Below the pieces are notes generated by a model, which made no database searches, had not been told where the DNA came from, and saw nothing but the letters and a program-made list of their open reading frames with translations. A stretch of 64,000 nt of DNA from Polyangiales bacterium. GTDB lineage: Bacteria > Myxococcota_A > Polyangia > Polyangiales > Ga0077539. The position numbers and the translations under genes were made by a program. The DNA is taken from the NCBI GenBank assembly GCA_044229975.1, contig JBGARZ010000023.1:32001-96000 (forward strand), written 5' to 3'. This document shows positions 5,378-22,708 of the stretch, in pieces (position 1 is the first letter of the stretch; every line of letters starts with the position of its first letter).

Positions 5378-5443
5378 CGGAAATGCGAGTGCTTTGATAG
5401 GGCAGTCTCGGAGTGTGCTGGCGCACCTCATTGGGAGGACATC

Positions 5444-5749
5444 ATGGATATCCGAACTGTCGCTTTTGCCGTCGCTTCGTTGGCTTTGGGTTTGGCTGCC
5501 GGAGACATCAGGGCTGAAACACCGATCACCATGCAGGAGGACGTGCTCCAGACACCTCCCGCGACCCCCTTGCAGCACTGCTGGCAAGAGTGCCATCCCG
5601 AGTGCCATCCGGTTTGCGTCCCCGAGTGCCATCCGGTCTGCCACCCCATCTGTGATGCCGATGGGCACTGCCACCAGGACTGTCACCAGGAGTGCCACCA
5701 GGACTGTCACCAGGAGTGCCACCAGGAGTGCCACCAGGTTTGCCGCTGA
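5444..5749 (+). CDS. Secreted Cys/His periodic-repeat peptide (C-H-x-x repeats, 14 Cys)
   Basis: GGAGG RBS; signal peptide; CWQECHPECHPVCVPECHPVCHPIC-DADGH-CHQDCHQECHQDCHQECHQECHQVCR. Confidence 0.8.
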   Translation: MDIRTVAFAVASLALGLAAGDIRAETPITMQEDVLQTPPATPLQHCWQECHPECHPVCVPECHPVCHPICDADGHCHQDCHQECHQDCHQECHQECHQVCR

Positions 5750-5947
5750 CGAAGAGGCGGACCTCCTCGTCGGAAGCCCGCATGTAGAGAGCGAGTGCGC
5801 GCGTTGGCGAGGTTTCTTCCGGGGGGTGTCGCCATCGAAATCCGTCGAGGTGCGACGGAGGCAACGTATCGGGGATCGTCCAAGCTGCGAAGGCCCGATC
5901 GCCGCGAGGCGTGCCGCACCTGCAACCGTTGGGTGTACCTTCCCGGC

Positions 5948-7258
5948 GTGCTTCGACGAGCTCTCCTCGCAACCGCGCTGAGCTTCCTTCCAGCCACGGC
6001 CTACGGCAACGGACGCTTCCCCCAGGCGCAGGAGTTTCACCAAGCCCCGGGCTCGAACAGCGAGCTCATGGTCGTGCGCGCCACCTTCGGACTCATCGTC
6101 AGCGTCGACCGGGGCCAGCGGTGGGAATACTGGTGCGAGGACGCTCTGCAGTACTCCGACGGCTACGATCCGCCGCTGACGTACACCGCCAACGGCACGC
6201 TGCTCGTCGCCCTCGACAACGGCCTCTTGAGCACCCGCGATGGGTGTTCAGTTCGCCGCCAACCCGACCTCGAGTCCCTCAGCGTCAAGGACATCGCCTC
6301 GTCGCCCGACGGCCGCGTGACATGGGCGATCGCGGTGACCCGCAGCATACGACCCGACTCGCGCGTCGCACGTTCGACCGACCAGGGCCTCACCTTCGAG
6401 TTCGTCGGCGACCGCTTCGAGGGGGTGATGCTGGAAACCATCGAGGTCGCGGGCTCCGATCCGCTGCGGCTCTACGCCACCGGCACGCTGACCTCCGACG
6501 GCACCGCGGTGCTCTTCCGCACCGTGGACGGCGGCGTGCGCTGGGTGCGCGCCAGCGCGGGCTTCGGCGAGGCTAGCGGGGTGTACGTCTCCGGCGTCGA
6601 TGGGCATCGCCCGGAGGTCGTCTACCTGCGCGCGACCGCGGCCGGGCGGGACATGGACGCCGGCCCCGCGGGCAGCGCTGATGTGCTCTTCCGCAGCGAC
6701 GATGGGGGTGAGACGCTGCGCGAGGTGCTTCGTACCCGCGGCCCGATGCGGGGGTTCGGACTCTCCGACGACGGTCGACGGGTGTGGGCTGGCGGGCCCG
6801 AAGACGGCGTGTGGCGCTCCATCGACGGGGCAGCGCCCACGCGCTTTTCGGACGAGCCTGTCGACTGCCTCCGGTGGAGTTCGGGTGCCCTGTGGGCCTG
6901 CCGCGTCTTCACCCTCGGCGGCCCCTTGTTGCTGCGGAGCGACGGCGACAGCGCCTTCGTCACAGCGCTTTCGGCGCCTGAGGTTGGCGGTCCTCCGGTC
7001 CGTTGCCCGACCGGAACCGTCGCGAGCGGGGTGTGTCCGTCGCGGTGGAGCGTGGTGCGGCGATCTCTCGTTCAGCCGGCGGCGATCGATGCCTCGACCG
7101 ACCAGGGCGCGGCGGTCACGCAGCCGTCCTCGGCGGGCCATGGATGCCACGCCGGACCTGGGGCGCAGGGGGCTTGGAGCGCCTTCGTCGGGTTCGCCGT
7201 TGCGGCGATCGGACGGCGGCGGCGCACTCGCACCCTCCGCTCCCGCCCTGACGGCTGA
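5948..7258 (+). CDS. Secreted Asp-box/BNR beta-propeller protein (divergent paralog 3)
   Basis: Signal peptide then NGRFP; ATFGLIVSVDRGQRW, RSTDQG, RTVDGG, RSDDGG boxes; GC-TM-RRRR tail; start uncertain (5933 or 5948). Confidence 0.8.
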   Translation: MLRRALLATALSFLPATAYGNGRFPQAQEFHQAPGSNSELMVVRATFGLIVSVDRGQRWEYWCEDALQYSDGYDPPLTYTANGTLLVALDNGLLSTRDGCSVRRQPDLESLSVKDIASSPDGRVTWAIAVTRSIRPDSRVARSTDQGLTFEFVGDRFEGVMLETIEVAGSDPLRLYATGTLTSDGTAVLFRTVDGGVRWVRASAGFGEASGVYVSGVDGHRPEVVYLRATAAGRDMDAGPAGSADVLFRSDDGGETLREVLRTRGPMRGFGLSDDGRRVWAGGPEDGVWRSIDGAAPTRFSDEPVDCLRWSSGALWACRVFTLGGPLLLRSDGDSAFVTALSAPEVGGPPVRCPTGTVASGVCPSRWSVVRRSLVQPAAIDASTDQGAAVTQPSSAGHGCHAGPGAQGAWSAFVGFAVAAIGRRRRTRTLRSRPDG

Positions 7259-7348
7259 CGAGCCGTGGGAACTTCCGAGCTCTCCGAAAGAACTACTGCC
7301 TCCCACTGAGCCGTCCCTCCAGGTTGCGGCCAACGCTCTGCGCCTGCT

Positions 7349-7657
7349 GGCGTTCAGCGATACCCGACGTACGACGCAGTTGCCCGTTGGCTTGTGACGT
7401 CAATCCCTCTAGAAGGCGTTACTTCTTGCCATCATAAAGGCAAGATATCCTCCGTCTGGATCCCTCCTAATCCGGGGCCGAGGGGCGCGAAGCGGAACCG
7501 ACGGCCTGTAGAGCACCTCTACAGAATGCCTCAGGCCGACAAATTAGCTAACGATTATAGCAAGTTATCGGCATGGCTCCACCGGGGTCTGCCGGAATCT
7601 GGCCGCTCGTGCTTCCACCGGGGTCTGCCGGAATTTGGCCGATCGCTCGGCCGGGCC
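7349..7657. repeat. Origin-like element copy 1 (palindromes, AT-rich stretch, two iterons); inverted homolog of 12127-12464
   Basis: Aligns by eye to the reverse complement of 12127-12464; iterons ccaccggggtctgccggaat(c/t)tggccg at 7579 and 7615; palindrome CTGTAGAG-cac-CTCTACAG at 7506-7524. Confidence 0.8.
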
Positions 7658-7665
7658 ACCGTCTG

Positions 7666-9181
7666 CTACCGCCCACTCAGTCGGGCGACAGCTTCTTCGA
7701 GCGCGCGTCCCATCTCCGCCTCGGGGTCCGCTTCGGCCCGGATCACGCTCCGCGTCCCGACCCCAAGAGTTTGGGTCACCTGGACCTGAGTCCAGCCCTT
7801 GGACCTGCGCCATGCGCGCAGCTCGCTGCCCGTCGGGATCGAGGGCACTGGGGCGGCTCGACGGGCGGGAGGTGGTGGATCAGGCGGTCGCGGACCCACT
7901 GGGGGGGTAGAGGTGACAGCGGCCCCCGAGCGTCCGTTCGCCGCCCGCTTGACACCATCGCACCTCGCCCAGACCTTCGACGCGTTGGAGTTCGGCCAAG
8001 TCGCGCTCGAGGGACGTCCAGGCGCGACCCGGCTTGTTGGAGTCGAACTTGATGCCCGCGGTCTCGAGGAGTCCCTGGCCGGTGAGCGTGACGCACTCCC
8101 GGCCCTTCGCGAGGTCCCAGCGCCAGTGGATCGGGAGGATCAGTCCCAGGGCGAGGGCGCAGGGGTGGCGCACATGGTCGATGCGCGCGAGGTCGGCCGG
8201 GGCGGGTGCCCAGAGTGATCCCAGGGTGCCGTCGCGGTCCCGGACACCCTCGTAGAGCGCGGGGTGGATGGCCAGCACGAGCCCCTCCAGCGCCCACTCG
8301 GAGTCGTAGATCGCCTCGGCCCGCTGCGTGATGCTGAGCACGGGGCCGCGCATCCGCAGCTCCCCGCTGCGGTGGTAGATGGCCAGTTCGAGCCGCGTCA
8401 GCGCTTCGACCTCGTCGGCGACGACCTTACGCACGGAGTCGTCGCGGCGCGCGCGGTCGGAGTACCCGAGCGCGTCCATGTGCGCCTCGATTTTCCACCG
8501 CACGAACCCCGTTCGCCCCTCCGTGGTGAGCAGCCGGTGCCAGGCCGCCCAGTGCCGGAGCCCCTGCCACCCGCACCACGCCCTCACGGCGTGGATGATC
8601 CGCTCGGGGAGTTCTCGGACGTCCAGCTGCAAGCGCACCTGCCGGGTGGGGGCGAGGATCTCGGCCCACCCGTCCATGACCGGCGTCTTGTGCGGTTGCC
8701 TGTCTTTCGGGCGGTCGCGCCAGCCGTTGAGCAGCGCGTGGTGCGCGGGACCCGCGTCGAGTGCCATGAACGGCCGCTCGCGGTCGCGCTGGGCCGCGCG
8801 GACCGCGTGAGCCGAGAGCGCCGACAACGCCAGGACCCTCGCCAGCTCCCAGACCCTGGACAGGAAGTCCTGCTCGCCCGCGACCCCTTGCTCGGCGGCC
8901 ATGACCAGCGAGGCTGCACCCCACGTCCAGTCGAAGGCCGCCCCGCCGCGGATTCCGGGAAGGGTCGCCGGTCTGTCCGGTGTACCGGTTCCCCGATCGA
9001 CTGGGCGGTTCGCGCCGTTGGCTTGGAGCGCGAGGACGGTGCTGAACACCTCGCCGCGCGCTTCCAGATCGCTGCGAAGGTCGGCGAGGCCTTCCGGGCC
9101 GCTCGCCGTGGCCAGGAGCCGGTCGATCACCAGGCCGAGGTCCTTGTCCGACACCAGGGCTCGAAGCGCGTTCCGCAGCAC
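7666..9181 (-). pseudogene. Frameshifted paralog of the putative Rep-HTH protein at 12751-14397
   Basis: Strong similarity to 12751-14397 (ELPERI.HA..AW..WQGLRHWAA; IHPALYEGVR; ALALGLILPI.WRWD); frameshift at the G-run near 7900 and again near 7850; HTH in a separate frame; 5' end abuts an ATPase fragment. Confidence 0.8.
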
Positions 9182-9192
9182 CTGGGCGTCGG

Positions 9193-9737
9193 CTCGGCGT
9201 CACGGACACGCCGCGCGAGCACGCGAAGGAGGTGCTGAGGGAGCTGCTGGCGATGAGGGTCCAGAAGACGCTCATGCTGAGCGGAGACCACCAGGGGTCG
9301 CCGACGCGGTGGCCCGGCAGGTCGGCCTGACCGACGCGAAGGGCGACCTGCTCCCCGAGGACAAGGGCCGCGTCATCGACGAGCTCGCGAAGGCCGGCGT
9401 CGGCGTCGCCATGGTAGGCGACGGGTTCAACGACGCCCCAGCGCTCGCCTGATCGACCGTCGGGATCGCCATGCGGGCAAGCGGTTCGGACGTGGCGCTG
9501 AAGACAGCAGACATCGTGCCCATGGGTGACGACCTGCGGGCTTTGCCCTTCGCCGTGGGCCTCAGCCGCGCCTGCCGGCGGGTCATCCAACAGAACCTCT
9601 GGGCGAGTCTCGGCATGGTCGCGTTCCTCATCCCAGCAACTGTGTTCGGGATCGCCGGCATCGGCGTCGCGGTCGTGCTGCACGAAGGTTCGACACTCCT
9701 TGTCGTGACCAACGCCCTGCGCCTGCTGGCATTCATT
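9193..9737 (+). pseudogene. C-terminal fragment of a heavy-metal P1B-type ATPase
   Basis: DTPR..MLSGD (frameshift) [19 protein letters not shown] then SDVALKTAD..QNL..VVLHEGSTLLVVTNALRLL. Confidence 0.85.
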
Positions 9738-9744
9738 GCCCCCA

Positions 9745-9819
9745 TTTCACAGCGAAACCATAGTTGCTTCTCCGCCTTTCCTTCTGGACGTCATTCCTTC
9801 ATGCCGTCACGAAGGCAAG
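9745..9819. repeat. ~75-bp diverged direct repeat of 12470-12544
   Basis: tttc.cagcgaaacc.tag...ccgcctttcc....gacgtcattccttc.tg.cgtcacgaaggcaag in both copies. Confidence 0.8.
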
Positions 9820-9844
9820 ATGGTCGCGTCGTACCGTGCGTCCA

Positions 9845-9923
9845 CGCCGCGTGCTTCCACTGCGACCCTCTGCTGGAGGGGTGTGACCCCGATCCGGCGT
9901 GACATCAGTCGTCGAGCTGTTGA
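9845..9923. repeat. ~80-bp direct repeat of 11827-11910
   Basis: cgccgcgtgcttccactgcgaccctctgctgg...ggggtgt.gaccccgatccggcgtg.catcag.tcgtcgagctgttga in both copies. Confidence 0.9.
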
Positions 9924-9924
9924 G

Positions 9925-11448
9925 TTAGGGGGGTCGAGTCGGCGACTGTGACCCTGACGGCCCATGCTTCCGCGGCGGGGACCGACGGCGAGCCGGGACG
10001 ATCAGTCCCAGGACTGCCAGCACGAGCGACGCGCCACCCCCACCGGGCGCGGCGTGCGCCCCCGCGCGGCAGTTGCACCCGTCGCGCGGCGCTGGTGCGC
10101 CAACGGCGTCGAGCACGGTGTCGGGGGCATCGAGCACCCGGCCCGCGTCGCGGGCGTCGGCCCCGCCGAGATCCTCAGACACGTCGGGCGCGGCGCCGAG
10201 GTCCGCGGGCAGCGTCCCGGCGTCGAGCGGCGCCTGCATCCCGCTCGCGTCGAAGACGGCGGCATCGTGGAAGACCGGCGCGCGCGGCGCGCTCGCGTCG
10301 ATGCTCCGAAGCGGCGCCGAGACCGCCGACCAGAAGTCGGCGCACGTCGCCCCGACGCTGGCGTCGCCGCACATCGGAGAGGTGCCGGTGAGCCGACGTA
10401 GCGAGAGCAGCGGGTCGATGTGCTCGCCGCCGTCGTGGGAGTAGCCCAGCGCGAATCCGTCAATCACCTCGTCGGCGCACACGAAGAGCAGCCCGGCGTG
10501 ATAGCGCAGGCACTTCACACCAACGTCGCCACCGACACGCGTCCACGGGCCACCGCGCACCGATCGGCGGATGCCCTCGGCGCGAGCGGAGCTCGCGGTC
10601 CAAACGGTCTCGCCGTCGTCGGAGAGCGCAAAGCCCACCATCTCCTCCGACGTCTCCCCGATGGGGCGTAGGGTCAACCCGCCGTCATCGCTGCGCAGCA
10701 ACACCGTCCCGAGACCACGGGTACCTCGCACGTACACCACGTCGGGCCGGCGCGGATCGACGGCAGCGAGGAATACCCCATGGGCGCCGGCAAAGTCCCG
10801 CGCGACCTCGCGCACCGAGCGCCCGCCGTCGTCACTGCGCAGAAGAACCGGGATGCCGCCGCGAACATAGGCCGTCACGTAGACTCGCCGCGGGTCGTTG
10901 GGCGCCACGTCCGCGGTCTCGCTGAAGTACCCCATCAGCCGCGCGCCAGCTTCCCAACTCCGCCCGCCGTCGGACGAGAGCACCAACACGTCGTCGCCGG
11001 TGGGCCCGGCCAACGCAACCATGGCGCGCCCGTCGGCGGTGTGGGTAATGTCGGCAAAGCCCCGCGTGGGCGCGCCCGCCGGACGCGTCCAGCGACAGTA
11101 CGCCCCGTTGCTGGATGCGAGCCCGGTGAAGGTTGCGATCACCACGGTGCCGTCGGCGCCGATGGAGAGCGACGGATCGGCAGCGCCAGGGGCATTGAAG
11201 CCCTCCTCACAAACCCAATCCCACTGCCGCCCGCCGTCTCGCGAGAGCAGCAGACCGAAGGTCGTGCGCAGCGCTAGGACGTCGTTGGTCGCGCCCGGGC
11301 CCGCGACGAAGTATCCCGCTGCGGGGAAGCGCCCGTTGGCCTGCGCCTCGCCCGCGAAACCGAGAGCCAGCGCCAGACCCAGTGCCCCCACCCTACCCCG
11401 CACCGCTCCCCCGCACATCCAATGCCCACCCGCCGTTGGTGCTGTCAT
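9925..11448 (-). CDS. Secreted Asp-box/BNR beta-propeller protein with MYXO-CTERM-like tail (paralog 4)
   Basis: GGGAG RBS before ATG 11448; AQA-NGRFPAAGYFVAGPG; closely similar to paralogs 1 and 2; DGCNC-TM-RRR tail. Confidence 0.85.
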   Translation of the reverse strand: MTAPTAGGHWMCGGAVRGRVGALGLALALGFAGEAQANGRFPAAGYFVAGPGATNDVLALRTTFGLLLSRDGGRQWDWVCEEGFNAPGAADPSLSIGADGTVVIATFTGLASSNGAYCRWTRPAGAPTRGFADITHTADGRAMVALAGPTGDDVLVLSSDGGRSWEAGARLMGYFSETADVAPNDPRRVYVTAYVRGGIPVLLRSDDGGRSVREVARDFAGAHGVFLAAVDPRRPDVVYVRGTRGLGTVLLRSDDGGLTLRPIGETSEEMVGFALSDDGETVWTASSARAEGIRRSVRGGPWTRVGGDVGVKCLRYHAGLLFVCADEVIDGFALGYSHDGGEHIDPLLSLRRLTGTSPMCGDASVGATCADFWSAVSAPLRSIDASAPRAPVFHDAAVFDASGMQAPLDAGTLPADLGAAPDVSEDLGGADARDAGRVLDAPDTVLDAVGAPAPRDGCNCRAGAHAAPGGGGASLVLAVLGLIVPARRRSPPRKHGPSGSQSPTRPP

Positions 11449-11514
11449 CCCTACTCCCGCGATCCTGACACGGAATGCCCGGCTTCCGCCCCGGACAAGG
11501 GCTCGATGACTTCC

Positions 11515-11531
11515 TACTATCCGTCGTAGTA
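11515..11531. promoter_or_regulatory. Palindromic operator-like site TACTA-N7-TAGTA
   Basis: TACTATCCGTCGTAGTA in an AT-rich intergenic patch upstream of paralog 4. Confidence 0.45.
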
Positions 11532-11589
11532 TTTTCGCGACTCGCGCGGACGTTCCGCGCCAGGAGACGGACGGAACGTGACCAAACTG

Positions 11590-11824
11590 CAGTCTGACCT
11601 GCGGCGCGCTCACGCTCGTCGGCTGGGTGGCCGGGAAGCTGGGCGCCCCTCCCTCACCTGCAACGTGCCCTTCTGGCTCGCGTACGCGGCGGGCGGGTGG
11701 TTCGCGCTGCGTAAAGCGGTGCTCGTCATCCGCGCGAAGAAGTTCGAGATCGACTTCCTCATGCTGGTGGCCGCCGCGGGCGGGGGCGCTCGGGGAGTGG
11801 TTCGAGGGGGCGCTGCTGCTCTTC
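11590..11824 (+). pseudogene. N-terminal transmembrane fragment of a heavy-metal P1B-type ATPase
   Basis: LAYAAGGWFALRKAV..FEIDFLMLVAAAG / GALGEWFEGALLLF, split by a frameshift and then truncated. Confidence 0.75.
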
Positions 11825-11826
11825 CC

Positions 11827-12125
11827 CGCCGCGTGCTTCCACTGCGACCCTCTGCTGGTGGAGGGGTGTTGACCCCGATCCGGCGTGGCATCAGGTCGTC
11901 GAGCTGTTGAACTCCCCGTGATCCTGCGCGAGGTGACCAGTGGGTCCGCGACCGCAGCACGGCGCAGCCACGCCCGACGACACCACCGACCCGTAGCGGA
12001 TCGGCGAAACCTCTCCAGACAGCGACTCAGCAAGGGCGCCCGTACATGTGCGCGGCGGGCCTCGGACGCAGCTGCTCGGGGGCGACCTCGCGGCGCTCAC
12101 GCCATGGGTGCCGCCAAAGCACAGA
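11827..12125 (+). pseudogene. Highly decayed third copy of the rep-like gene
   Basis: QWVRDR at 11938 matches PQWVRDRL of both rep paralogs; DPLLVEG resembles HPALYEG; lies next to iterons in the same geometry as the other copies. Confidence 0.45.
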
Positions 12126-12126
12126 G

Positions 12127-12464
12127 GCCCGGCCACACGATCGGCCAAATTCCGGCAGACCCCGGTGGAGGATTCGGCCAGCTTCCGGCAGATCCTGGTG
12201 CCAGATCGGCCAAATTCCGGCAGACCCCGGTGGGGACATGTCGATAACTTGCTAGAATCGTTACCTAATTTTCTAAACCAAGGCCTTCTGTACAGGTACT
12301 CTACAGAGCCGTCGGTTCCGCTTCGCTCCTCTCGGCCCCGGATTAGGAGGGATACGGCCGAAGGATGTCTTGCCTTCATGACGGCAAGAGGCAACGCCTT
12401 CCAGATGGAGTGACGTCACGAGATAGCGGGCAGTGGCGTGGTACACCGGGTATCGTTGAACGCC
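12127..12464. repeat. Origin-like element copy 2 (three iterons, AT-rich stretch, palindromes)
   Basis: cggcca(aa/gc)ttccggcaga(c/t)cc(c/t)ggtg at 12142, 12175 and 12207; AT-rich 12242-12280; inverted homolog of 7349-7657. Confidence 0.8.
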
Positions 12465-12600
12465 CCTCGTTTCGCAGCGAAACCGTAGGCGTCCACCCGC
12501 CTTTCCATGTAGACGTCATTCCTTCCTGACGTCACGAAGGCAAGCCTTCGTTCCGTCACCTTATGTGCCGGACCGTCCTCCAGACGGGCCGAGCACCAGA

Positions 12601-12830
12601 AGGTTCTCCTCAGAGGAGAACCTCAGAGAGGACGTCAGAAAGTTGATTTCTCCTGTACTTCCAATGACTTGCAACAGGGCCTTCCGCAGGATCTGCCGGA
12701 TTCCTGCCGGTTCACCCGCAGGATCTGCCGGATTCCTGCCGGTTCATCCGCTAGGTCTGCCGGATTCCTGCCGGTCCACCCCTCCTGGCCAGTTCATCCG
12801 CAGGGTCTGCCGGATTTCTGCCGGTCACCT
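12601..12830. other. Putative replication origin of the intact replicon: perfect palindrome, AT-richer stretch, four iterons
   Basis: AGGTTCTCCTC-A-GAGGAGAACCT at 12601-12623; ccgcaggatctgccggattcctgccgg-like units at 12684, 12716, 12748 and 12798 (32-bp period for the first three). Confidence 0.7.
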
Positions 12831-14397
12831 GCCGGTCGAGACCCGCCCGGATGGCTCGCCCGAGCGGCTCGTCAGGCGCCGCCTCGGCTCCCCGAATGGT
12901 CCTCTCCCCCACGCCCAGCATCTTCGCCGCTTGCGCCTGCGTCCAACCTTGCTGCAAACGCCAGGCGTGTAGTTCGCCACCTGTTAGCAACAAGGGCGTC
13001 GCGAGCTGCTCGGCCGGCTCGATTCCATGAACCAATCGGTCACGGACCCACTGCGGCGGGTAGAGGTGGCAACGCCCGGTACGGGACCGCGCCTCGTTCG
13101 GGTTCCACCGGGCGAGCCCGAGTCCCCCCACGCGCTGCAGCTCCGCGAGGTTGCGGTCGAGCGCCGTCCAGGCCCTCCCGGGGTCGTGCGAAGACACGGG
13201 GATCCCAGCCGTGTCGAGGAGGCGCTCTCCCGTGAGGGTCAGATGATCCAACCCGTCGGCGGTGTCCCATCTCCACCGGATCGGCAGGATCAGTCCGAGG
13301 GCGAGCGCGTACGGGAAGCGGGCGTGGTCGATCGTCGCCAGCTCGGTAGGAGCCGGGGCCCAGAGCCTCCCGATGGAGCCGTCGGCGCGGCGGACCCCCT
13401 CGTACAACGCCGGGTGGATGACGAGCTCGAGCCCCTGGAGCGCCCACTCGGACCCGCGCAGGGCCTCGCCGCGCTGGGTCACGGCGAGAACTGGGCCGCG
13501 CAGGCGGAGGGTGCCGTCTGAGTTGTAGACGGCGACCTCCATGCGCGTGAGGGCTTCGACCTCGGCGGCGACGGTCGCCCGCAGCTCGGGCGTTCGCCGC
13601 GAGCGGTCGGCGTAGCCGAGGGCGTCGAGGTGGTCTTCGAGCGACCAGCGGATGCGCCCCGTACGTCCGGCCTCGGTGAACAGGCACTGCAGCGCGGCCC
13701 AATGCCGGAGCCCCTGCCACGACCGCCACGCTTTGATGGCATGAACGATCCGCTCGGGCAGCTCCTGGACGTCGAGCCGTAGCCCGAGCTGTTTGCTGGG
13801 GTGGAGGATCTCGGCCCACCCTTCGCGCTGGGTCGTCGTGTAGGGACGCCGACGATTCTTCGGCAGGTCGCGCCACCGGTCGATCAGCGAGTGGTGAACG
13901 TTGCCGGCGTCCAGCGCTATGAAAGGCCGCGCTCGGTCGCGTTCGATCTCGCGCCACGCGAGGTAGGCGCGGGCCGCGAGTGCGACAGAGATGGGCGGTT
14001 CATCGTCCGCGTCGTCGCGGCCGCCCGAGGCGAAGAGGCCGCGGATGCGGTCGCAGCAGGCAGCCGCTGCGGCGGGGTCCGGCGCCCGGTCGCCGAGCCA
14101 GGCGACGACATCGGCGGGGGCGGCGGCCAGCGGCCAGAGCGGCAGGGCAGAGCCGCCCTCCACGCTGACCTCGATGGCCATCCAGACGGTCGGGTCGGCG
14201 CCGAGTTCGGCGCCCGCCGCCGTCAGCGCGGCGAGGTGCGGCTCGGTGTCGGAGAGGCCGGAGGCGCGCACCCGATCGACCACCGCCGCGCGCACGGCAT
14301 CAGCGACCAGCGTTCGGAGCGCGCCGTCGAGCGCGTCGAGGTCGGCTCGCACGAGCAGAGCACGGGCGTCGGAGCGGCGCACGACGAGAGGGGTCAT
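12751..14397 (-). CDS. Putative plasmid replication initiator with C-terminal XRE-type HTH
   Basis: Intact ORF downstream of parA and its partner; ends within the iterons; C-terminal TGGELHAWRLQQGWTQAQAAKMLGVGERTIRGAE HTH; Rep function inferred from context. Confidence 0.65.
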   Translation of the reverse strand: MTPLVVRRSDARALLVRADLDALDGALRTLVADAVRAAVVDRVRASGLSDTEPHLAALTAAGAELGADPTVWMAIEVSVEGGSALPLWPLAAAPADVVAWLGDRAPDPAAAAACCDRIRGLFASGGRDDADDEPPISVALAARAYLAWREIERDRARPFIALDAGNVHHSLIDRWRDLPKNRRRPYTTTQREGWAEILHPSKQLGLRLDVQELPERIVHAIKAWRSWQGLRHWAALQCLFTEAGRTGRIRWSLEDHLDALGYADRSRRTPELRATVAAEVEALTRMEVAVYNSDGTLRLRGPVLAVTQRGEALRGSEWALQGLELVIHPALYEGVRRADGSIGRLWAPAPTELATIDHARFPYALALGLILPIRWRWDTADGLDHLTLTGERLLDTAGIPVSSHDPGRAWTALDRNLAELQRVGGLGLARWNPNEARSRTGRCHLYPPQWVRDRLVHGIEPAEQLATPLLLTGGELHAWRLQQGWTQAQAAKMLGVGERTIRGAEAAPDEPLGRAIRAGLDRQVTGRNPADPADELARRGGPAGIRQT

Positions 14398-14447
14398 GGC
14401 GTTTCGAGAAGAGAGCCGTGCAGAGACATCGGAATGCGCTGTCTCAG

Positions 14448-14843
14448 TCAGGCCCGGAGTCGGGCGCGCAAGAGGGCCTTCAAGTCGGCCTCGGACTTCG
14501 CTTCGCTCAGGTCGAGACCCTCGCTCTCCAGCGCATCGACGAGCGCCCGTAGGATCTCCGCCCGCCGGATGGCGGCGCCGGTCTTGGCCCGGATGTCGTT
14601 TGCCAGGCGGTCGAGGAACACGATCTGTCTGTTGAAGAGGACCACGGTGACCTTGGTCCATTCCTCGTGGGTGGCAGGTCGCCCCAGGGCGGGTGCAGCC
14701 GCCTTCACGGCAGTTGGTTCGACCAGCATCGGTGGGGCCGGCTCAGCTGCCAGCGTCGCTGCCGTTTCGGGCTCGGCGGGCGCCGCCTCTGCTGCGGTGG
14801 CCGAGAAGATGTTCATCTTGCCCAGCCTGCTCGGCTTGTTCAT
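14448..14843 (-). CDS. ParG-like ribbon-helix-helix partition partner
   Basis: Directly after parA; flexible Ala/Pro/Glu N-terminus, then KVTVVL strand and two helices (RAEILRALVD); GAGGA RBS. Confidence 0.65.
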   Translation of the reverse strand: MNKPSRLGKMNIFSATAAEAAPAEPETAATLAAEPAPPMLVEPTAVKAAAPALGRPATHEEWTKVTVVLFNRQIVFLDRLANDIRAKTGAAIRRAEILRALVDALESEGLDLSEAKSEADLKALLRARLRA

Positions 14844-14878
14844 GCGTTCCTCACTTCCATTATGACGGCAGTCCGCCC

Positions 14879-15652
14879 TTACTTCTTGCCGTCTTGACGG
14901 CACCTTTGCAAGACCTCAGCAGCGAGCCGGCGATAGGCGTCGGCGCCGCTTGAGTTCGGGTCGTGCCCGAAGATCGTCTCGCCGAAGCTCGGGGCCTCCG
15001 AGAGGCGGACGTTGATCGGAATCTCTGTCTTGAAGACGCGCTCGCCGTAGTGCCCTCGGATGAGGTCGATGACCTCCCCGGTGACCTTCGGCCGACGGTC
15101 CACCTGGGTGAGCACCAGTCCCAACAAGGTGGCCTTTGCACCGGTGCCCCGGCGAAGCAGTTCCGTGGCCTCCATCAGGTTCACGAGTCCCTCGACGGCC
15201 AGGTACTGGGGTGTGACCGGCACCAGGAAGGCGTCCGCGGCCACCAGGGCGTTGATGGGCACCATCGAGAGCGAGGGAGGGCAGTCGAGGAGGATGAAGG
15301 CGTAGTCGCCTCTCACCGGCGCCAGGGCCTCCACCAGACGGCGCTCGCGTCCCTTCACGTCGGCGAGGGCGAGGTCGGCGTTGGCCAGGGCCATCGAGCC
15401 AGTGAGCAGGTCGAGGCCCTCGACGGCCGTCGGACGGATCGCGTCGCGAATCGGCAGCCCGTCGAGCAGGACCTCCGCCGACGAGGGGGCGAGCTTGTCG
15501 CGCGCGACCCCGAGCGAGAAGGACGCCGACCCCTGGCTGTCCAGATCGGCTAGCAGCACGCGCCGCGTCTTCGTGGCGAGCCCCGCCGCGAGGTTGACCG
15601 CCGTGGTCGTCTTGGCGACGCCACCCTTGTTGTTGACCAGCGCGATGATCAT
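14879..15652 (-). CDS. parA: ParA/Soj family partition ATPase
   Basis: KGGVAKTTT deviant Walker A, DLDSQG, ILLDCPP, NALVAAD, IPINVRLSEAP; no N-terminal HTH (type Ib). Confidence 0.95.
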   Translation of the reverse strand: MIIALVNNKGGVAKTTTAVNLAAGLATKTRRVLLADLDSQGSASFSLGVARDKLAPSSAEVLLDGLPIRDAIRPTAVEGLDLLTGSMALANADLALADVKGRERRLVEALAPVRGDYAFILLDCPPSLSMVPINALVAADAFLVPVTPQYLAVEGLVNLMEATELLRRGTGAKATLLGLVLTQVDRRPKVTGEVIDLIRGHYGERVFKTEIPINVRLSEAPSFGETIFGHDPNSSGADAYRRLAAEVLQRCRQDGKK

Positions 15653-15921
15653 GCCATCCGTCCTTCCGCCTAGACGGCTGGGTAGCATGACGCCCTGACT
15701 TCTTTCCATCCCAAAGTGGACCGGCATACTGTGGTCGTCGAAGGGGACCTTCCCCACCTTCGCCATGCCCACAACTACCCCTGCGAGGTCGGCGTAGAGC
15801 TCTGCGCGTGCCAGGCTCCGCCGATTCACATGCAGCTCCATGCGGGTAGACCAGGCGCACAAGCCGTTGCCACAACCGTCCCCTGCGCTTGCGGCGCCGA
15901 CCAGATCACGGGGGTGGTGCG

Positions 15922-18201
15922 ATGAGCCTCCCCGTCCAGGAACGTCGCGGGGTGTCCCCCGTCGCGCGATCGGGGTTCGCGCGGGACACGCGTATCGAAC
16001 CCAATGCCCTCACCGCAATCAAGCAGGAGGCGGCGTTTGGTTGGCTCTGCTGCCAGCTGTTGCCCGGGATGTCGAGCATTCGCGTGCTCCCCGGCGAGGT
16101 GGGCACCGAGAGGGACTGGGTCAGGCCCGCGATCCAATCGAACGTGGACCCTCGGGACGCCGTCGCCGCACACCTCCTCGCGGGCGACAGAAGGAACTCG
16201 GTGTCGTTGCCGGGGTACACGCGAGAGCCCGTGCGGTCGGTCGCGTTTGCGTACTCGAAAAGGGCGCGCACCTCGCGCCTGACAATCCACCTGTCTGGCC
16301 GCGTTCCAGGCTACGAGGTCGGCACGTTCGTCCAGCGCCTCGGCGACCGAGTGGGCCACAGCCGCCTGTTGGTCACCTCGGTCAGCGCCATGGTCGGCGG
16401 TCGCAGGGAGCACCGATGCCACGTCCGCGTGCCGGAGATGGAGGTGTTATGCGCGGTGACCGCGGTCTCTCAACTGCTCGAAGACTGCGGCTTCGCGCAG
16501 CGTAGCGGGGTGGTCGAGGTGTTCCCGGACAGCCGGTTTGCCGGCCTGCCCTTCGGGCTGCTCGAGAACGAGTTGCTGCGCTACGGCGACGGCGGTCTGG
16601 AGTCCGAGCCCGAGTGCGGGTGGCGGCGGCTGGTCGCGGAGTTTCAGGCGTTGGAGACCCTCGACTTCGAGCGTCTTCTTCCGCCCTCCTCCTCCGACCC
16701 AGAAGTCACCACATCTCGCGCCGCCGACCCGCTCGCTCCGGCGACTGTCGCCCCTCGTGCTGCCGACCCACCGATCTCCTCGACGGCGCCGTCCGTGGCT
16801 CCCGGGAGCGTTGATGCCTACTTCGAGCTGGTCTGTCACGGGGTCGCCCTCGTGTCCGTGCAGCCAGAGTCCTGCCCATGGACCCCGGAGGGGGGCTGGA
16901 AGTGGTTGAAGACGCGAATCGACGTGAAGCGTTCGGTTGTCGCGCACCTGCTGGCCTCCCAGACGGGGCAGCCCTCGCGGCTCGGGCGACGCGGCATCCG
17001 CGCGTCCGGGCTCTCGTACCGGCCCGATGCGACGACGTCCCGCATCACGATCGACCTGGACGGCAAGCACGGGTACGAGCCCGCCAAGGTCGTCGCTGCT
17101 CTCGCCGCCATCGTGGGACGCGACCGCCTGATGGTGACCGCGAGCAGCGGCTCCCCCGGGCACTACCATTGTCACGCCCGGGTCCCACCGATGCGCGTGG
17201 ATGAGACGGTCGCGGCGTCGCGCGCGCTGCTCGACAGGGCCGGGTTCAAGTGGAAGCTGGGTGGCGCGGAGACCTACCCGAGCACTGGCAACTGTCGCCT
17301 GCCGTTCGGCCTGGGCGGGTGCGAGCTGTTCGAGGACGAGCAACTCCAGGTCGGCCATCAGGAGACGTGGCAGGAGCTCACGAAGCGGCTCTGTGGGATG
17401 CCGACGCTGGTGTTCCAATCGGGGTCGCCGCCTGGTAGCCGAGCGCGTCGGCACGTCCGCTCGCGCGCCCGGGCCCGTAACGCCGAGACGGCTGCCCGCA
17501 TCGAGAGGTGGCGCGCGAACGGGGTCGAACGCCACGAGCGAAACCAAGCGCTGTTCGACCTCGTGGTGAACGGTCGTTGTCGGGGCCTCGCGGAAGATGA
17601 GGTCCTTCGCGAGCTCCAGGGATGGATCGACGGAGGCGGCCTGGCGCGGAGCGCCGTGGCGCGGAAACCCGGCGGCATCGCCAAGCAGCGTAACCAGGTT
17701 CTCCCGGATGTTGTGGAGCGGGTGTATGGCTACCCTCCCCCCGCGAAGCAGAAGGCCAACCTCACGGAGACAGAGATCGCCTGGGTCGTCGAGATCGCCA
17801 AAGAGCGATGCCCCAAACGGCGCGCGCACGCGGTGGTGCTCCTGCTCGACGTGCTGCCATGGTTCAAGGCCGCGTGGCTCGAGGGCAGGACGGACGTCAC
17901 GCTCGGGCAGAAGGAGTGGGCCCGAACCCTCGGGCGACGGGGGGATGGCTACGCGTTGCTCCGGCGACAACTGCACCTGTTCAGGCAGACGTCCCACTAC
18001 GTGATTGGCGAGCGCTCGACCACCTGGTGCCTGACCGAGCCCGTCCCCTTCGAGTCTCGCCATCCGACCGAGCGTCTGGTTTCGACGAACCCGCGTCCCG
18101 CGACGAAGCGCACTGGTTCGAAGCCCTCCCGCCTCCAAAAGACGGCGTGGGTTCTGGCGGCCGCTGAGCGGGTAGCTCGCGGCGTCGTCCGGGATGGGTG
18201 A
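15922..18201 (+). CDS. Primase-polymerase-like protein with tandem AEP-like domains and a PriCT-like region
   Basis: Second domain has ITIDLD, SSGSPGHYHCH and CRLPFG; first domain is a clear internal duplicate with LTIHLS; later HERNQALFDL resembles PriCT-1. Confidence 0.65.
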   Translation: MSLPVQERRGVSPVARSGFARDTRIEPNALTAIKQEAAFGWLCCQLLPGMSSIRVLPGEVGTERDWVRPAIQSNVDPRDAVAAHLLAGDRRNSVSLPGYTREPVRSVAFAYSKRARTSRLTIHLSGRVPGYEVGTFVQRLGDRVGHSRLLVTSVSAMVGGRREHRCHVRVPEMEVLCAVTAVSQLLEDCGFAQRSGVVEVFPDSRFAGLPFGLLENELLRYGDGGLESEPECGWRRLVAEFQALETLDFERLLPPSSSDPEVTTSRAADPLAPATVAPRAADPPISSTAPSVAPGSVDAYFELVCHGVALVSVQPESCPWTPEGGWKWLKTRIDVKRSVVAHLLASQTGQPSRLGRRGIRASGLSYRPDATTSRITIDLDGKHGYEPAKVVAALAAIVGRDRLMVTASSGSPGHYHCHARVPPMRVDETVAASRALLDRAGFKWKLGGAETYPSTGNCRLPFGLGGCELFEDEQLQVGHQETWQELTKRLCGMPTLVFQSGSPPGSRARRHVRSRARARNAETAARIERWRANGVERHERNQALFDLVVNGRCRGLAEDEVLRELQGWIDGGGLARSAVARKPGGIAKQRNQVLPDVVERVYGYPPPAKQKANLTETEIAWVVEIAKERCPKRRAHAVVLLLDVLPWFKAAWLEGRTDVTLGQKEWARTLGRRGDGYALLRRQLHLFRQTSHYVIGERSTTWCLTEPVPFESRHPTERLVSTNPRPATKRTGSKPSRLQKTAWVLAAAERVARGVVRDG

Positions 18202-18252
18202 AAGTTCCCCGTCGAAAAAGCTGTGAGTTACCAGCCACTTCCGGTCAAACAA

Positions 18253-18435
18253 GACGCACTCTGTCTGCTCCTACCCGTTGGGACGCACTGTGTCGGTGAG
18301 GGCGGCGGCGGACCAAGACCACGGAGTGCTGATCGGAGAGCAGACGGTCGGACGCAAGTCGAGGAGGAGAGGGAAGCCGTCGCCCCCGCTGCCGCCGTCG
18401 TCGATGCCGCGTGAGACCACGGAGTGCTGGTCGGA
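18253..18435. repeat. Direct repeats downstream of the AEP-like gene
   Basis: gacgcact(c/g)tgtc at 18253 and 18282; agaccacggagtgctg(a/g)tcgga at 18316 and 18414. Confidence 0.8.
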
Positions 18436-18491
18436 TGCCGGTCGCTGGGCCGGTTCGCGGGCCCCACCGTACGCACCCCAGCGGGGCGCAG

Positions 18492-18986
18492 CTACTGGCG
18501 CGATCGGGGAGGGCGAGGGGGCGGCTGGAAGAGCTCGGGCTGGTCGTCCGCTGCCTCCGCGCGCCGCTTCGGGCGGTGGGGGCGCGCCTCCGCGCGCTCG
18601 GGAGGCGGGAGACGGACGGGCGGCCAGGGAGGCGGCACGGCGGCCTCTTCCTCTTCGGCGTCGGGCGCGCGGACGCGCTCGTCGCGCGGGCGCAGGAACA
18701 CCACTCCCGCCGGCGGGGCGAACGCGTCGGGCGCCTCGTCGAGCAGCGCCCGCCCGGCGAGCCGCTCAAGCTCCGCGGCTGCGGCGAGCTCACGGGCGAC
18801 GTGGTCCAGGTAGGAGCGCGCGCGGCGTAGCCGCGTGACGAGGTCGGCGAGCTCGGGGCGGAGCTCGACGAGGCGGGCCACACGGGGATGGGCGCAGTCC
18901 GCCGCGAGCACCGCGGGCTCGGTCGAGCCGCAGCGGAGGCACAGCTCCACCGTCGTCGTGATGGGGCGGACGCGCTGGTCGGTCAC
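18492..18986 (-). CDS. Hypothetical protein with CxxC...CxH motif and a coiled segment
   Basis: ORF with GC-biased codons; ELCLRCG..DCAH; start uncertain. Confidence 0.5.
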   Translation of the reverse strand: MTDQRVRPITTTVELCLRCGSTEPAVLAADCAHPRVARLVELRPELADLVTRLRRARSYLDHVARELAAAAELERLAGRALLDEAPDAFAPPAGVVFLRPRDERVRAPDAEEEEAAVPPPWPPVRLPPPERAEARPHRPKRRAEAADDQPELFQPPPRPPRSRQ

Positions 18987-19159
18987 GACACGAGCGTAGC
19001 CCCGCGCGGAACGGCCCGTCACCTTTCGGCGCGGCGCCGCGCCGACGTCATCCGGCTGGGCGGCGCCCTTGCCATGACGGCCCAGGGCGGGCGAAGACGC
19101 GCCACCGTGGCGCCCCCGCACACGCCTCGGCCCGCACCTCACGTCCGCGCGCCCTGTGG

Positions 19160-20806: not shown

Positions 20807-22708
20807 CTACTTCGTCCACTCGGTGGTCTCGACCACGGGGAGGTGGAGGGCGCGCTCGCGCTCGAGGTCGAGGTTGCCGACGTGGAGCGACAGGGGCGCC
20901 TGGACCCACTTGTAGATCGACTGCACGAACAGCCGGACGAACTTCTCGACCCACCCGCGGATCGCGGCGGGCGCCTCCCCCGGGAACATCACCAGGAGGG
21001 CCTCGACGACCTCGCCCGGCGAGAGCTTCTCGGCGGCGTAGAGGTGGAAGCAGGCGTCGAGCATGCGGAAGGGCATGAGCTCGTCTTCGCCTCGCTGGTC
21101 GGGCGCGAGCTCGGGGCCCGCCGGGGCCGAGAGCGTGAGCCGGATGCCCTCGAATCCGTGCCGCTCGAGGAGGTATTCGAGGAGGTAGACGACGACGGTC
21201 TTGGGCACGTTGGCGAGCACCGCGAGGGCGCCCTCCAGGTCGCCGCCGATGGTGGTGTAGCCCATCGCCTTCTCGCTCATGTTCCCCGTCTGGAGGAAGA
21301 GCATCCCGCTCGTGTTCGACCAGTTCCACATCCGCTGCGCGCGGATGCGGGCCTGGACATTCTGCTCGGTGACCGGGGTGAGCGCGCCGCCCACCATGGC
21401 GCGCGCGGCCTCCGCCTCGCGCAGGAACGCCTCCTCGATGGGCACGACCCGGAAGGGCACCCCGAGCTCCTCGCAGATGGTGCGGGCGCAGGTGCTCGTG
21501 TGGTCCGAGGAGTAGCGCGAGGGCATGTAGAAGGCCCGCAAGAGCTCGCCCGCCTTCGAGCGCCGCGCCCCCTCGTCGAGGCCGGCGAAGCGCCTTTGCA
21601 CGTAGCGCCAGGCGACCAGCAGCGTGAGGAGCGAGTCGCGCCCCCCCGAGAGCGCGATGCCGAGGCCCGTGAACGCCCGGGTCTTCTCGAAGTAGTCGCC
21701 CACGCCGAGCGCGAGGGCGTCGAGCAGGTCGTCGCAGAACTCGTCGCGCGCCGGACGGGGCGCGCCCACCGGCGGCAGGAAGAAGCTCCCGTGGGCGGGC
21801 GCGGGGTAGGCGAGGCCCGAGCGGTCGGCCGTGCGCCCGGCGACCTCCAGGACCGTGGGGCGCGCCGCGGCGGCGCGGGCGTCGAGGCAGTCGCCGCGCC
21901 AGGTGGTGTTCTCGGTGCGCAGTCGCCGCGTGCGGTCCAGGTCCACCGTCGCCGCGGCCCACGACTCGCGCCAGCGCGGCGCCTCGAGCACCGGGCGGCC
22001 GTTCTGGAAGACGAAGCCCCCGCCGTCGAAGATGAGCCCGTCGTTGGCGCCCACGCTGGTCACGTAGGCGAGGGCGCACTGGTTGTCGGCCGAGCGCGTC
22101 GCGAGCATCTCCCGGCGCGTGCCGAGGACCCCCGCGCGGTAGGGCGAGCCGGAGATGTTCACGACGAGCTCGGCGCCCGCGTACGCGCGGCGGCGCATCG
22201 GGCCGTCGGGCGACCACACGTCCTCGCAGAGCTCGACCGCGAGCGCGCCGAAGTCGAACGCGAACACGAGGTCGCCGAGGGGCACGCCCCCGAGGTCGTC
22301 GAGCTGGCCGGGGGCGCCGCGGGAGAAGGTGCGCGCCTCGTGGAAGACGTTGTAGGTGGGGAGCTTCTCCTTCGGGACCACCCCGACGATGCGGCCGCGG
22401 TGGACGACGGCGGCGGCGTTGTAGAGGTGGCCGCCGCGCGCGACGACGAGGCCGAGGACCCACACGGTGCCGGCCCCGGCGGTCCCGGCCGCGAAGCGCT
22501 GGAGCTGCTCCCACTGGGCCGCGACGAAGCCGCGCCACTGCACGAGGTCCTCGGCGGGGTAGCCGCCGATCACCTGCTCGGGGAAGGCGCCGACGGTCGC
22601 GCCCGCGGCGGCCATCTCGCCCGCCATGCGGAGGCAGCGGTCGGTGTTCGAGCGGACCGAGCCCACGGTGGCGTTCACGCTGCCGAGGGCGATCTTGATG
22701 AGCCTCAT
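20807..22708 (-). CDS. nadE: Glutamine-dependent NAD+ synthetase
   Basis: Nitrilase domain with FPE / KEKLPTY / LCEDVW triad; synthetase domain with SGGRDS, NVQARIR and TGNMSE. Confidence 0.95.
   Translation of the reverse strand: MRLIKIALGSVNATVGSVRSNTDRCLRMAGEMAAAGATVGAFPEQVIGGYPAEDLVQWRGFVAAQWEQLQRFAAGTAGAGTVWVLGLVVARGGHLYNAAAVVHRGRIVGVVPKEKLPTYNVFHEARTFSRGAPGQLDDLGGVPLGDLVFAFDFGALAVELCEDVWSPDGPMRRRAYAGAELVVNISGSPYRAGVLGTRREMLATRSADNQCALAYVTSVGANDGLIFDGGGFVFQNGRPVLEAPRWRESWAAATVDLDRTRRLRTENTTWRGDCLDARAAAARPTVLEVAGRTADRSGLAYPAPAHGSFFLPPVGAPRPARDEFCDDLLDALALGVGDYFEKTRAFTGLGIALSGGRDSLLTLLVAWRYVQRRFAGLDEGARRSKAGELLRAFYMPSRYSSDHTSTCARTICEELGVPFRVVPIEEAFLREAEAARAMVGGALTPVTEQNVQARIRAQRMWNWSNTSGMLFLQTGNMSEKAMGYTTIGGDLEGALAVLANVPKTVVVYLLEYLLERHGFEGIRLTLSAPAGPELAPDQRGEDELMPFRMLDACFHLYAAEKLSPGEVVEALLVMFPGEAPAAIRGWVEKFVRLFVQSIYKWVQAPLSLHVGNLDLERERALHLPVVETTEWTK

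Follow-up and report, generated by a model that had tools for sequence, protein, structure and literature searches.

What replicates the DNA around the parA gene of this stretch from a Polyangiales bacterium, and on what kind of molecule does that gene reside? The stretch (hereafter the window) comprises 64,000 nucleotides and corresponds to G000:C29:32001-96000, part of a 152-kb contig, C29, in a host genome (G000) of 10.0 Mb and 39 contigs with a guanine-plus-cytosine (GC) content of ~71% and a completeness of 93%. Positions given below are those of the window unless a contig is named. An earlier note on this DNA had described a parA gene, a small gene, a gene for a helix-turn-helix (HTH) protein of ~550 residues, and a divergently transcribed AEP-like gene, and we found each of these features where it had been described. 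The four genes, encoding ParA and proteins of 131, 548, and 759 residues, all have a coding-type GC content at third codon positions (0.83 to 0.89). The note had viewed the region as the core of a large plasmid with a poorly characterized initiator family, a view supported by the predicted fold, by the family's own repeat arrays, and by a contig that can be circularized. We propose, with a probability of about 0.82, that the region is the replicon of a circular accessory plasmid of ~155.6 kb, in which the 548-residue protein (hereafter Rep) would bind repeats at the 3' end of its own gene and open an AT-richer patch. The plasmid copies would be partitioned by ParA together with the small protein.

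The predicted initiator and its origin

Rep is encoded at 12751..14397 on the minus strand. Its AlphaFold model, built from 73 sequences, has a pLDDT of 88.2 and a pTM of 0.86 and divides into an N-terminal domain (residues ~1-155), a tandem winged helix (~157/211-455), and a C-terminal XRE HTH (471-523). The best matches of the model among solved structures, by Foldseek, were RctB domains 2-3 (E value of 1e-4) and R6K pi (3.2e-3), together with RepE. A VIA-align comparison with 48,161 chains, which scarcely covers the N-terminal ~155 residues, gave a Z score of 11.3 for R6K pi (root mean square deviation [rmsd] of 4.4 Å, 214 residues) and of 10.8 for RctB (216 residues), the next row standing at 7.1. 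Residues 471-523 resemble XRE repressors in structure comparison, and Pfam HTH_3 matched residues 476-511 (E value of 1.1e-5). The tandem winged-helix fold, for which the earlier note had proposed a check, was found by both structural methods, and the modeled protein is predicted to be an initiator of this type, like R6K pi and RctB.

Beyond the HTH, Rep had no match in Pfam, NCBIfam, or PHROGs and, by profile, none among PDB sequences. The Pfam family Rep3_N (PF01051) matched none of 73 Rep homologs and nothing in three genomes; a search of the ESM Atlas returned a Rep3_N lead, amounting to 13% of one cluster. The Rep core had no match in PLSDB (72,556 plasmids), INPHARED (50,697 phages), or IMG/VR, pMF1 being included in the plasmid set searched.

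The rep gene ends inside an iteron-like array (12692..12837, minus strand), as had been noted, with its stop codon at 12751-12753. The array consists of repeats of ~20-22 bp at 12692-12711, 12724-12743, 12756-12775, and 12806-12825, spaced by 32, 32, and 50 bp, and a half-site. It is followed by an AT-richer patch (12624..12680; 47% GC over 57 bp), a candidate unwinding element, and then by a 23-bp palindrome at 12601..12623, ~75 bp from the last repeat core. This palindrome is perfect, as reported in the note, with two 11-bp arms around one base, and is a candidate site for a Rep dimer or for the XRE domain. Across the 10-Mb genome, only 14 palindromes have arms of at least 11 bp, including 2 that lie in Rep family origins. 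A search for sigma-70 promoters gave no match, and an Rfam search of 7000-19000 matched no family.

We then compared the origin with those of other family members. Seventy-five rep-bearing places were reduced to 41 that were nonredundant at 95%, and 5 that were too short were dropped. Three repeats with a period of 31 to 33 bp were present just 3' of rep in 29 of the remaining 36 members, compared to 1 of 599 control windows taken 3' of ordinary genes. Aligned origins share one order, in which the repeats are followed by a low-GC patch of ~45 bp and by a palindrome ~70-75 bp from the last repeat core; the patch has a similar length in most of them, and related palindromes occur at the same offset in many. 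The sequence of the repeat varies with the rep clade and the period of 31 to 33 bp stays constant, down to 37-47% protein identity, a pattern expected if protein and binding site change together (kinship being uncorrected in this comparison). Together, these alignments indicate that the origin is a conserved trait of the Rep family.

By analogy with pi, RepE, and TrfA (PMC4980987), Rep monomers would bind the repeats cooperatively on one helix face, 32 bp being about three turns. As in iteron plasmids, Rep would then open the AT-richer patch and bring in a helicase, which may be the host DnaB in the case of the window replicon; many relatives encode a DnaB-like helicase directly upstream. The extra repeats might limit copy number. 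The most likely target of the XRE domain is the palindrome on the far side of the patch, a speculative assignment that pairs two conserved features.

Probable closure of the contig and related replicons

The contig circularity that the earlier note had proposed to check was evaluated at the ends of C29 (151,911 bp). An exact terminal overlap is absent in C29 and in C30, another rep-bearing contig of the same genome. However, both C29 ends run into one insertion sequence (IS) of 3.65 kb, which is present as a whole on C11, C31, and C38. All three internal copies are flanked by a 6-bp target duplication, and at C29 the 6 bp before the left end of the IS (at the contig end) are identical to the 6 bp after its right end (at the contig start). 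Furthermore, the gene cut at the C29 ends is one contiguous gene in locus L053, and its two halves overlap by exactly those two codons. Closure through the IS therefore yields a circle of ~155.6 kb (151,911 + 3,648 bp), and C29, judged from its end sequences, probably closes as a circle. The whole IS copy at G000:C11:434891-438537 contains two transposase-like open reading frames of 448 and 631 residues; as well as being whole on C31 and C38, the element has ends on C1, C24, and C29.

The gene content of C29, also proposed for checking through marker genes, includes no tRNA. A hand count found paralogs elsewhere in the genome for 84 of the 119 genes called on C29. No unique core gene was present among the 49 of 119 proteins scanned, the remainder being judged by paralogs and by eye. 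The cargo, inspected by eye, consists mainly of genes for metal efflux and P-type ATPases, and the scanned proteins also include a serine resolvase and CBASS-like and AAA/subtilase proteins. The host has its own dnaA and a canonical chromosomal dnaB on other contigs, which ruled out a replacement of dnaA by Rep and DnaB for the chromosome.

Several other features of C29 were noted. Metal-resistance blocks at 33581-63481 are duplicated at G000:C31:54000-106600, upstream of a tRNA-SeC call, with 78-98% protein identity, a possible exchange between the plasmid and a chromosomal island. A defense-like island at G000:C29:108216-115341 (L049) comprises an AAA ATPase and subtilase pair, a SMODS nucleotidyltransferase with AGS_C, and an S_4TM effector (CBASS-like). 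Eight paralogs of a secreted protein of ~450 residues, with ANGRFP after the signal peptide, are encoded on C29, at 2475-7258 and 9925-11391 of the window, where three are in tandem, and in further copies elsewhere on the contig; the one scanned had no Pfam match. A glutamine-dependent NAD synthase gene at 20807-22708 is 76% identical to a copy on C19, and a short tandem repeat at 513-630 (unit of ~33 bp) encodes a small protein rich in Gln, His, and Thr.

The Rep family has at least 119 homologs, forms 308 clusters at 50% identity (164 at E values up to 1e-30), and the only function that databases assign to it is transcription regulation. Rep relatives at 26 genome loci belong mostly to metagenome-assembled genomes of Polyangiales, Myxococcota, Myxococcaceae, and Deltaproteobacteria, with a few from other phyla. 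The distribution is patchy: within the host's family, 14 of 30 other genomes carry a member, whereas none of 30 genomes representing the other families of the order does. A sample of 300 genomes from the phylum, with only four candidates scored per genome, yielded 4 with a member, three of which are from other families. DNA related to the window was found in sequencing runs from activated sludge and wastewater; none of the runs searched covers as much as half of the stretch, and those with matches include no RNA run.

A DnaB-like helicase gene lies directly upstream (within 3.5 kb) of rep in 19 of the 32 members with enough flanking sequence, 18 by tblastn and that of L025 by Pfam, and is the usual partner of the family; the window rep has no helicase gene beside it. 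The earlier note had named chromosomal homologs devoid of par genes or iterons as evidence that would count against a plasmid. Instead, the relatives have repeat arrays of their own, and parA is within 5 kb of rep in 12 of 21 cases.

Other members are also located on probable circles. Contig G017:C99 (47,859 bp) carries a 141-bp terminal repeat, present at its two ends only, which gives a circle of 47.7 kb with genes for DnaB, Rep, ParA, and a tyrosine recombinase, together with repeats. It also contains (L122, L146-L148) PqqD/transglutaminase-like peptide-maturation genes and a polysaccharide cluster, and its binning to G017 is uncertain because its GC content is 58%. G000 itself carries three rep copies, which fall in three separately supported clades; the tree, a quick version in which distant members have long branches, was used solely for this separation. 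One copy is on C30 (150,355 bp), where rep (134301-135995 of that contig) and a DnaB-like gene (135992-137257+) follow a dnaB-rep-origin order. C30 also carries parA, many radical-SAM genes (assigned to the His-Xaa-Ser system by NCBIfam in relatives), glycosyltransferase genes, and one tRNA-Tyr call. Both of its ends lie inside one repeat-rich reading frame (a repeat protein of more than 5,700 residues); G004:C13 (137 kb), which shares 49 of 94 C30 genes, breaks in the same giant gene, and we infer circular closure for both.

Two further sets of relatives stood out. In genome G002, five contigs (C10, C25, C65, C92, and C93; 16-111 kb) contain 16 matches to the rep profile, many of them fragmentary and with several copies per contig. 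At L018 and L019, rep, parA, and a tyrosine recombinase gene occur beside genes that by eye encode flagellin, FliD/FliS-like proteins, and a sigma-54 regulator, which is unexpected for myxobacteria.

The mosaic module and its rival readings

ParA (257 residues; 14879..15652, minus strand) was identified by Pfam AAA_31 (E value of 7.7e-49, from residue 2) and by phrog_164 (ParA-like). It begins directly at the deviant Walker A motif, and its relatives are likewise called at 257 residues. Of the type Ib par pair proposed in the earlier note, the short ParA without an N-terminal HTH stands, whereas the ribbon-helix-helix (RHH) assignment of the partner is unconfirmed by profile: the best hit was RHH_7 with an E value of 0.097 in 1 of 49 homologs, and there was no PDB match. 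This 131-residue protein (14448..14843, minus strand) is a putative centromere-binding protein by its strand-helix-helix pattern, seen by eye. It has 1094 homologs, returned only unnamed clusters from the ESM Atlas, and is encoded 3' of parA at seven loci (L009, L015, L016, L017, L076, L077, and L086). A candidate centromere or operator, the 16-bp palindrome TGCC(G/T)TC-NN-GA(C/A)GGCA, is located at the parA 3' end (14887..14902), partly in coding sequence, with further copies at 12371-12386, 12527-12542, and 9802-9817. All 3 exact and 6 of the 18 one-mismatch matches in the genome are on C29, the motif having been defined from these copies. Of 7 loci that share the par cassette, 5 retain the palindrome at the end of parA; none of the 8 loci in the rep clade of the window has it there.

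In relatives, this par pair usually accompanies a different rep. At the seven loci with the same parA and small gene, the next rep is 62% identical to 12751-14397, and it is 93% identical (82% for L009) to a broken rep paralog of the window. The broken copy, 5.2 kb from the par pair at 7681..9181 on the minus strand (also given as 7880-9181), is 5'-truncated and frameshifted before the HTH, and its origin (7349..7655, minus strand) has two repeats (7588-7604 and 7624-7640) and a palindrome (7506-7524). A second origin of this clade, which the earlier note had missed along with the broken rep, lies inverted at 12139..12464 on the plus strand, with repeats at 12143, 12176, and 12208, a palindrome at 12288-12306, and no intact rep adjoining; it is 81% identical to 7349-7655 over 308 bp. 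On a 4.3-kb contig of sequencing run X4, the AEP gene, parA, the small gene, and a rep of the broken copy's type follow one another uninterrupted. Since, in addition, relatives of the intact rep resemble the window at the DNA level only across 12559-14417, a rep-plus-origin cassette of one clade appears to have been inserted behind the par genes and to have displaced the rep of the other clade. Judged from these comparisons, the replicon module is a mosaic whose original rep has decayed, leaving an inverted origin of its type at 12139-12464. The par genes and the intact rep thus have not formed one unit from the outset.

Two fragments of P-type ATPase genes (9181-9923 and 11587-11910) and a repeat of ~85 bp (9841-9923 and 11823-11910, 92% identical) flank the inserted block and are likely recombination scars. 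We also considered a decayed third rep at 11930-12140, and we make no claim for it, the evidence being one 6-residue motif and a profile E value of 0.2.

Several observations weigh against a plasmid replicon driven by Rep. The structural similarity is modest, with an rmsd of 4.2-4.4 Å and an identity of 9-14%; Rep has no match to a Rep family in Pfam or NCBIfam, and PLSDB contains no complete plasmid bearing a Rep homolog. The triplet of repeats was not detected in 7 of the 36 homologs, including C30, which has a looser one. No DnaA box was found in the main origin, and initiation may accordingly be independent of DnaA. Terminal overlap is present in 1 of 12 other rep-bearing contigs tested and absent in 11. 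A search of G000 (93% complete) with PF08751, PF03432, and PF12696, other MOB families being unsearched, detected no relaxase or coupling protein. The ends of C1 and C24 also stop in the same IS as those of C29. Finally, some homologs have chromosome-like surroundings (a truncated rep in G011:C12 and a dnaB-rep pair among genes that look by eye like housekeeping genes in G267:C136), showing that integrated forms exist.

The last two points fit a plasmid-derived element that is now integrated in the chromosome, as an IS cointegrate or a genomic island, with a silent or decaying replicon; so do the broken rep and the orphan origin in the region, and the large C29 blocks whose proteins are 78-98% identical to those of C31 and C32 genes. 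We nonetheless consider this reading unlikely. The target sites at C1 and C24 match neither that of C29 nor each other, and a cointegrate is therefore unsupported. No damage is seen in the main rep or its origin, in parA, or in the AEP gene; the 49 of 119 C29 proteins scanned include a serine resolvase but no integrase; and the broken rep would be explained by displacement through the incoming rep-origin cassette.

A second rival to the Rep-driven plasmid makes the AEP protein the real initiator, of a primase type reminiscent of ColE2 or IncQ, and the winged-helix protein secondary. This 759-residue protein is encoded at 15922..18201 on the plus strand, divergently and 269 bp from the parA start. 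Its model has a pLDDT of 73.5 and a pTM of 0.36 and presents a degenerate AEP copy without DxD, an intact AEP domain (DLD at ~378-380), a PriCT-1-like helical domain, and a C-terminal winged-helix-like domain. The internal duplication has 34% identity (E value of 9e-25). Foldseek matched the CAPP Prim-Pol (E value of 1.1e-5), to which VIA-align gave a Z score of 13.3 over 294-504, and PriCT_1 was found in 4 of 8 homologs, weakly (below 1e-3 at best). The AEP assignment of the earlier note is borne out by the fold and by the DxD, His, and Arg/Asp motifs, and D378, D380, H416, H418, and R459 are invariant in all 8 homologs that make up this very small family. An initiator role would fit this intact motif set, the accessory domains, and the fact that the gene adjoins the same par cassette in L015 as well as on contigs from runs X1 and X4. 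In contrast, the gene occurs in only 1 of 60 other genomes, compared to 14 of 60 for rep; just 1 of 21 reps has it within 5 kb, and it is absent from C30 and from the rep-bearing 17-kb stretch of G017:C99. The AEP gene is thus an occasional neighbor and not a core part; it accompanies the par cassette, not the Rep family, and its role as the true initiator is highly improbable. In the plasmid that we propose, the AEP protein would be optional and might either prime replication or serve as an initiator in its own right, of the primase type. Convergent with its gene is an open reading frame for a Cys-containing protein of 164 residues (18492-18986, minus strand), which also adjoins it in L015, has an 80% identical counterpart in G004:C175, and had no Pfam match.

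The HTH families are the sole consistent Pfam matches across Rep homologs, whose database labels read helix-turn-helix, XRE family transcriptional regulator, or hypothetical protein, and one could therefore take Rep for an XRE-family transcription regulator that binds repeats 3' of its own gene. We see next to no chance of this, since the HTH accounts for ~50 of 548 residues and the core has a Rep fold, and since the DnaB linkage, the phased repeats with an AT patch, and the location on circles fit an initiator. A replication module of a prophage or phage-plasmid has an equally negligible probability: phages commonly encode an initiator beside a DnaB-like helicase, and the L006 helicase scores best, below the cutoff, with phage_DnaB of NCBIfam, but Rep had no phage database or PHROG match outside the HTH, as described above, and no virion genes were present among the proteins scanned on C29 (49 of 119) or G017:C99 (23 of 39).

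Known systems and meaning

The tandem winged-helix core of the Rep model is common to the iteron initiators R6K pi (PDB 2NRA), F RepE (1REP), and pPS10 RepA (1HKQ) and to Pfam Rep3, and phased direct repeats beside an AT-richer patch are likewise found in iteron plasmids (PMC4980987). Rep is about twice as long as pi, RepE, and RepA and carries two additions, a further domain at the N terminus and an XRE HTH fused at the C terminus; it is 9-16% identical to them and lacks a Rep3_N match. Its origin differs from those of iteron plasmids in lying at or beyond the rep 3' end, in having no detected DnaA box, and in the palindrome conserved beyond the AT patch. RctB of Vibrio chromosome II (domains 2-3; PDB 5UBF/5TBF) shares a Rep core with extra domains, but the alignment is limited to the central winged-helix pair at 12-14% identity, and the replicons described here bear accessory cargo.

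The Chlamydia plasmid encodes its own DnaB cotranscribed with an iteron-binding initiator, plus par genes and a tyrosine recombinase (PMC11895440). Its Pgp1 (DnaB-like)-Pgp2 (initiator) pair, Pgp5/6, and the XerC/D-like Pgp7/8 resemble the layout of G017:C99 and C30. The likeness drawn here is one of gene layout; the window rep has no adjoining helicase gene, and the replicons described here measure 48 to 155 kb. By analogy with these systems, the window replicon is predicted to work like known iteron plasmids, and what is new would be an unannotated initiator family with an XRE fusion, an origin and palindrome at the 3' end, and frequently a private DnaB.

Among Myxococcota, pMF1 (18.6 kb), pSa001 (209.7 kb), and the 64.3-kb plasmid of Myxococcus sp. 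MxC21 are circular replicons with a ParA, as here. PMC11705834 gives pMF1 and pSa001 as the sole two myxobacterial plasmids, and PMC10544341 adds the MxC21 plasmid. The pMF1.22 protein is weakly similar to the window ParA (E value of 3e-7), but the essential pMF1.14 is unrelated to Rep (profile E value of 0.3) and to the AEP protein (0.6), and the window replicon is not of the pMF1 type. The coding-sequence table of pSa001, by which alone that plasmid was compared, names no initiator. As to the AEP protein, it shares the AEP fold over 294-504 and catalytic-type motifs with CAPP (7NQD/7P9J), LigD Pol, and RSF1010 RepB', and differs from them by the second, degenerate AEP domain in front and by the very small size of its family. 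A literature search found no description of the Rep family. A superclade of double winged-helix initiators (WH-RIP) has been defined in a preprint (10.1101/2024.09.03.610885), the main text of which does not contain the string "Myxococc"; its supplements or database may hold members.

A wider picture can be offered tentatively, at odds that we put somewhat below even. One uncultured myxobacterial lineage might be routinely multipartite and depend on a single unrecognized initiator family, with compatible replicons told apart by clade-specific iterons and with rep-origin cassettes swapped behind par genes. The 140- to 150-kb replicon with DnaB, the His-Xaa-Ser radical-SAM genes, and the giant repeat protein could then be a stably inherited, chromid-like element shared across genera, and the XRE domain might read the palindrome in a control step not known in iteron plasmids.

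The native myxobacterial plasmids described in the sources cited above number three (pMF1, pSa001, and that of MxC21), and Rep is unrelated to the pMF1 initiator. The Rep family may serve as a marker for large replicons that are now silently binned as chromosome. The candidate minireplicon measures ~1.9 kb, and natural iteron variants should be compatible, which would provide raw material for vectors in myxobacteria of the Polyangiales type. The fusion of an XRE domain to an iteron initiator raises the question of the role of that domain. Finally, the cargo of C29, with its metal-efflux and P-type ATPase clusters and its CBASS-like genes, suggests a route for the traffic of metal resistance among sludge myxobacteria.

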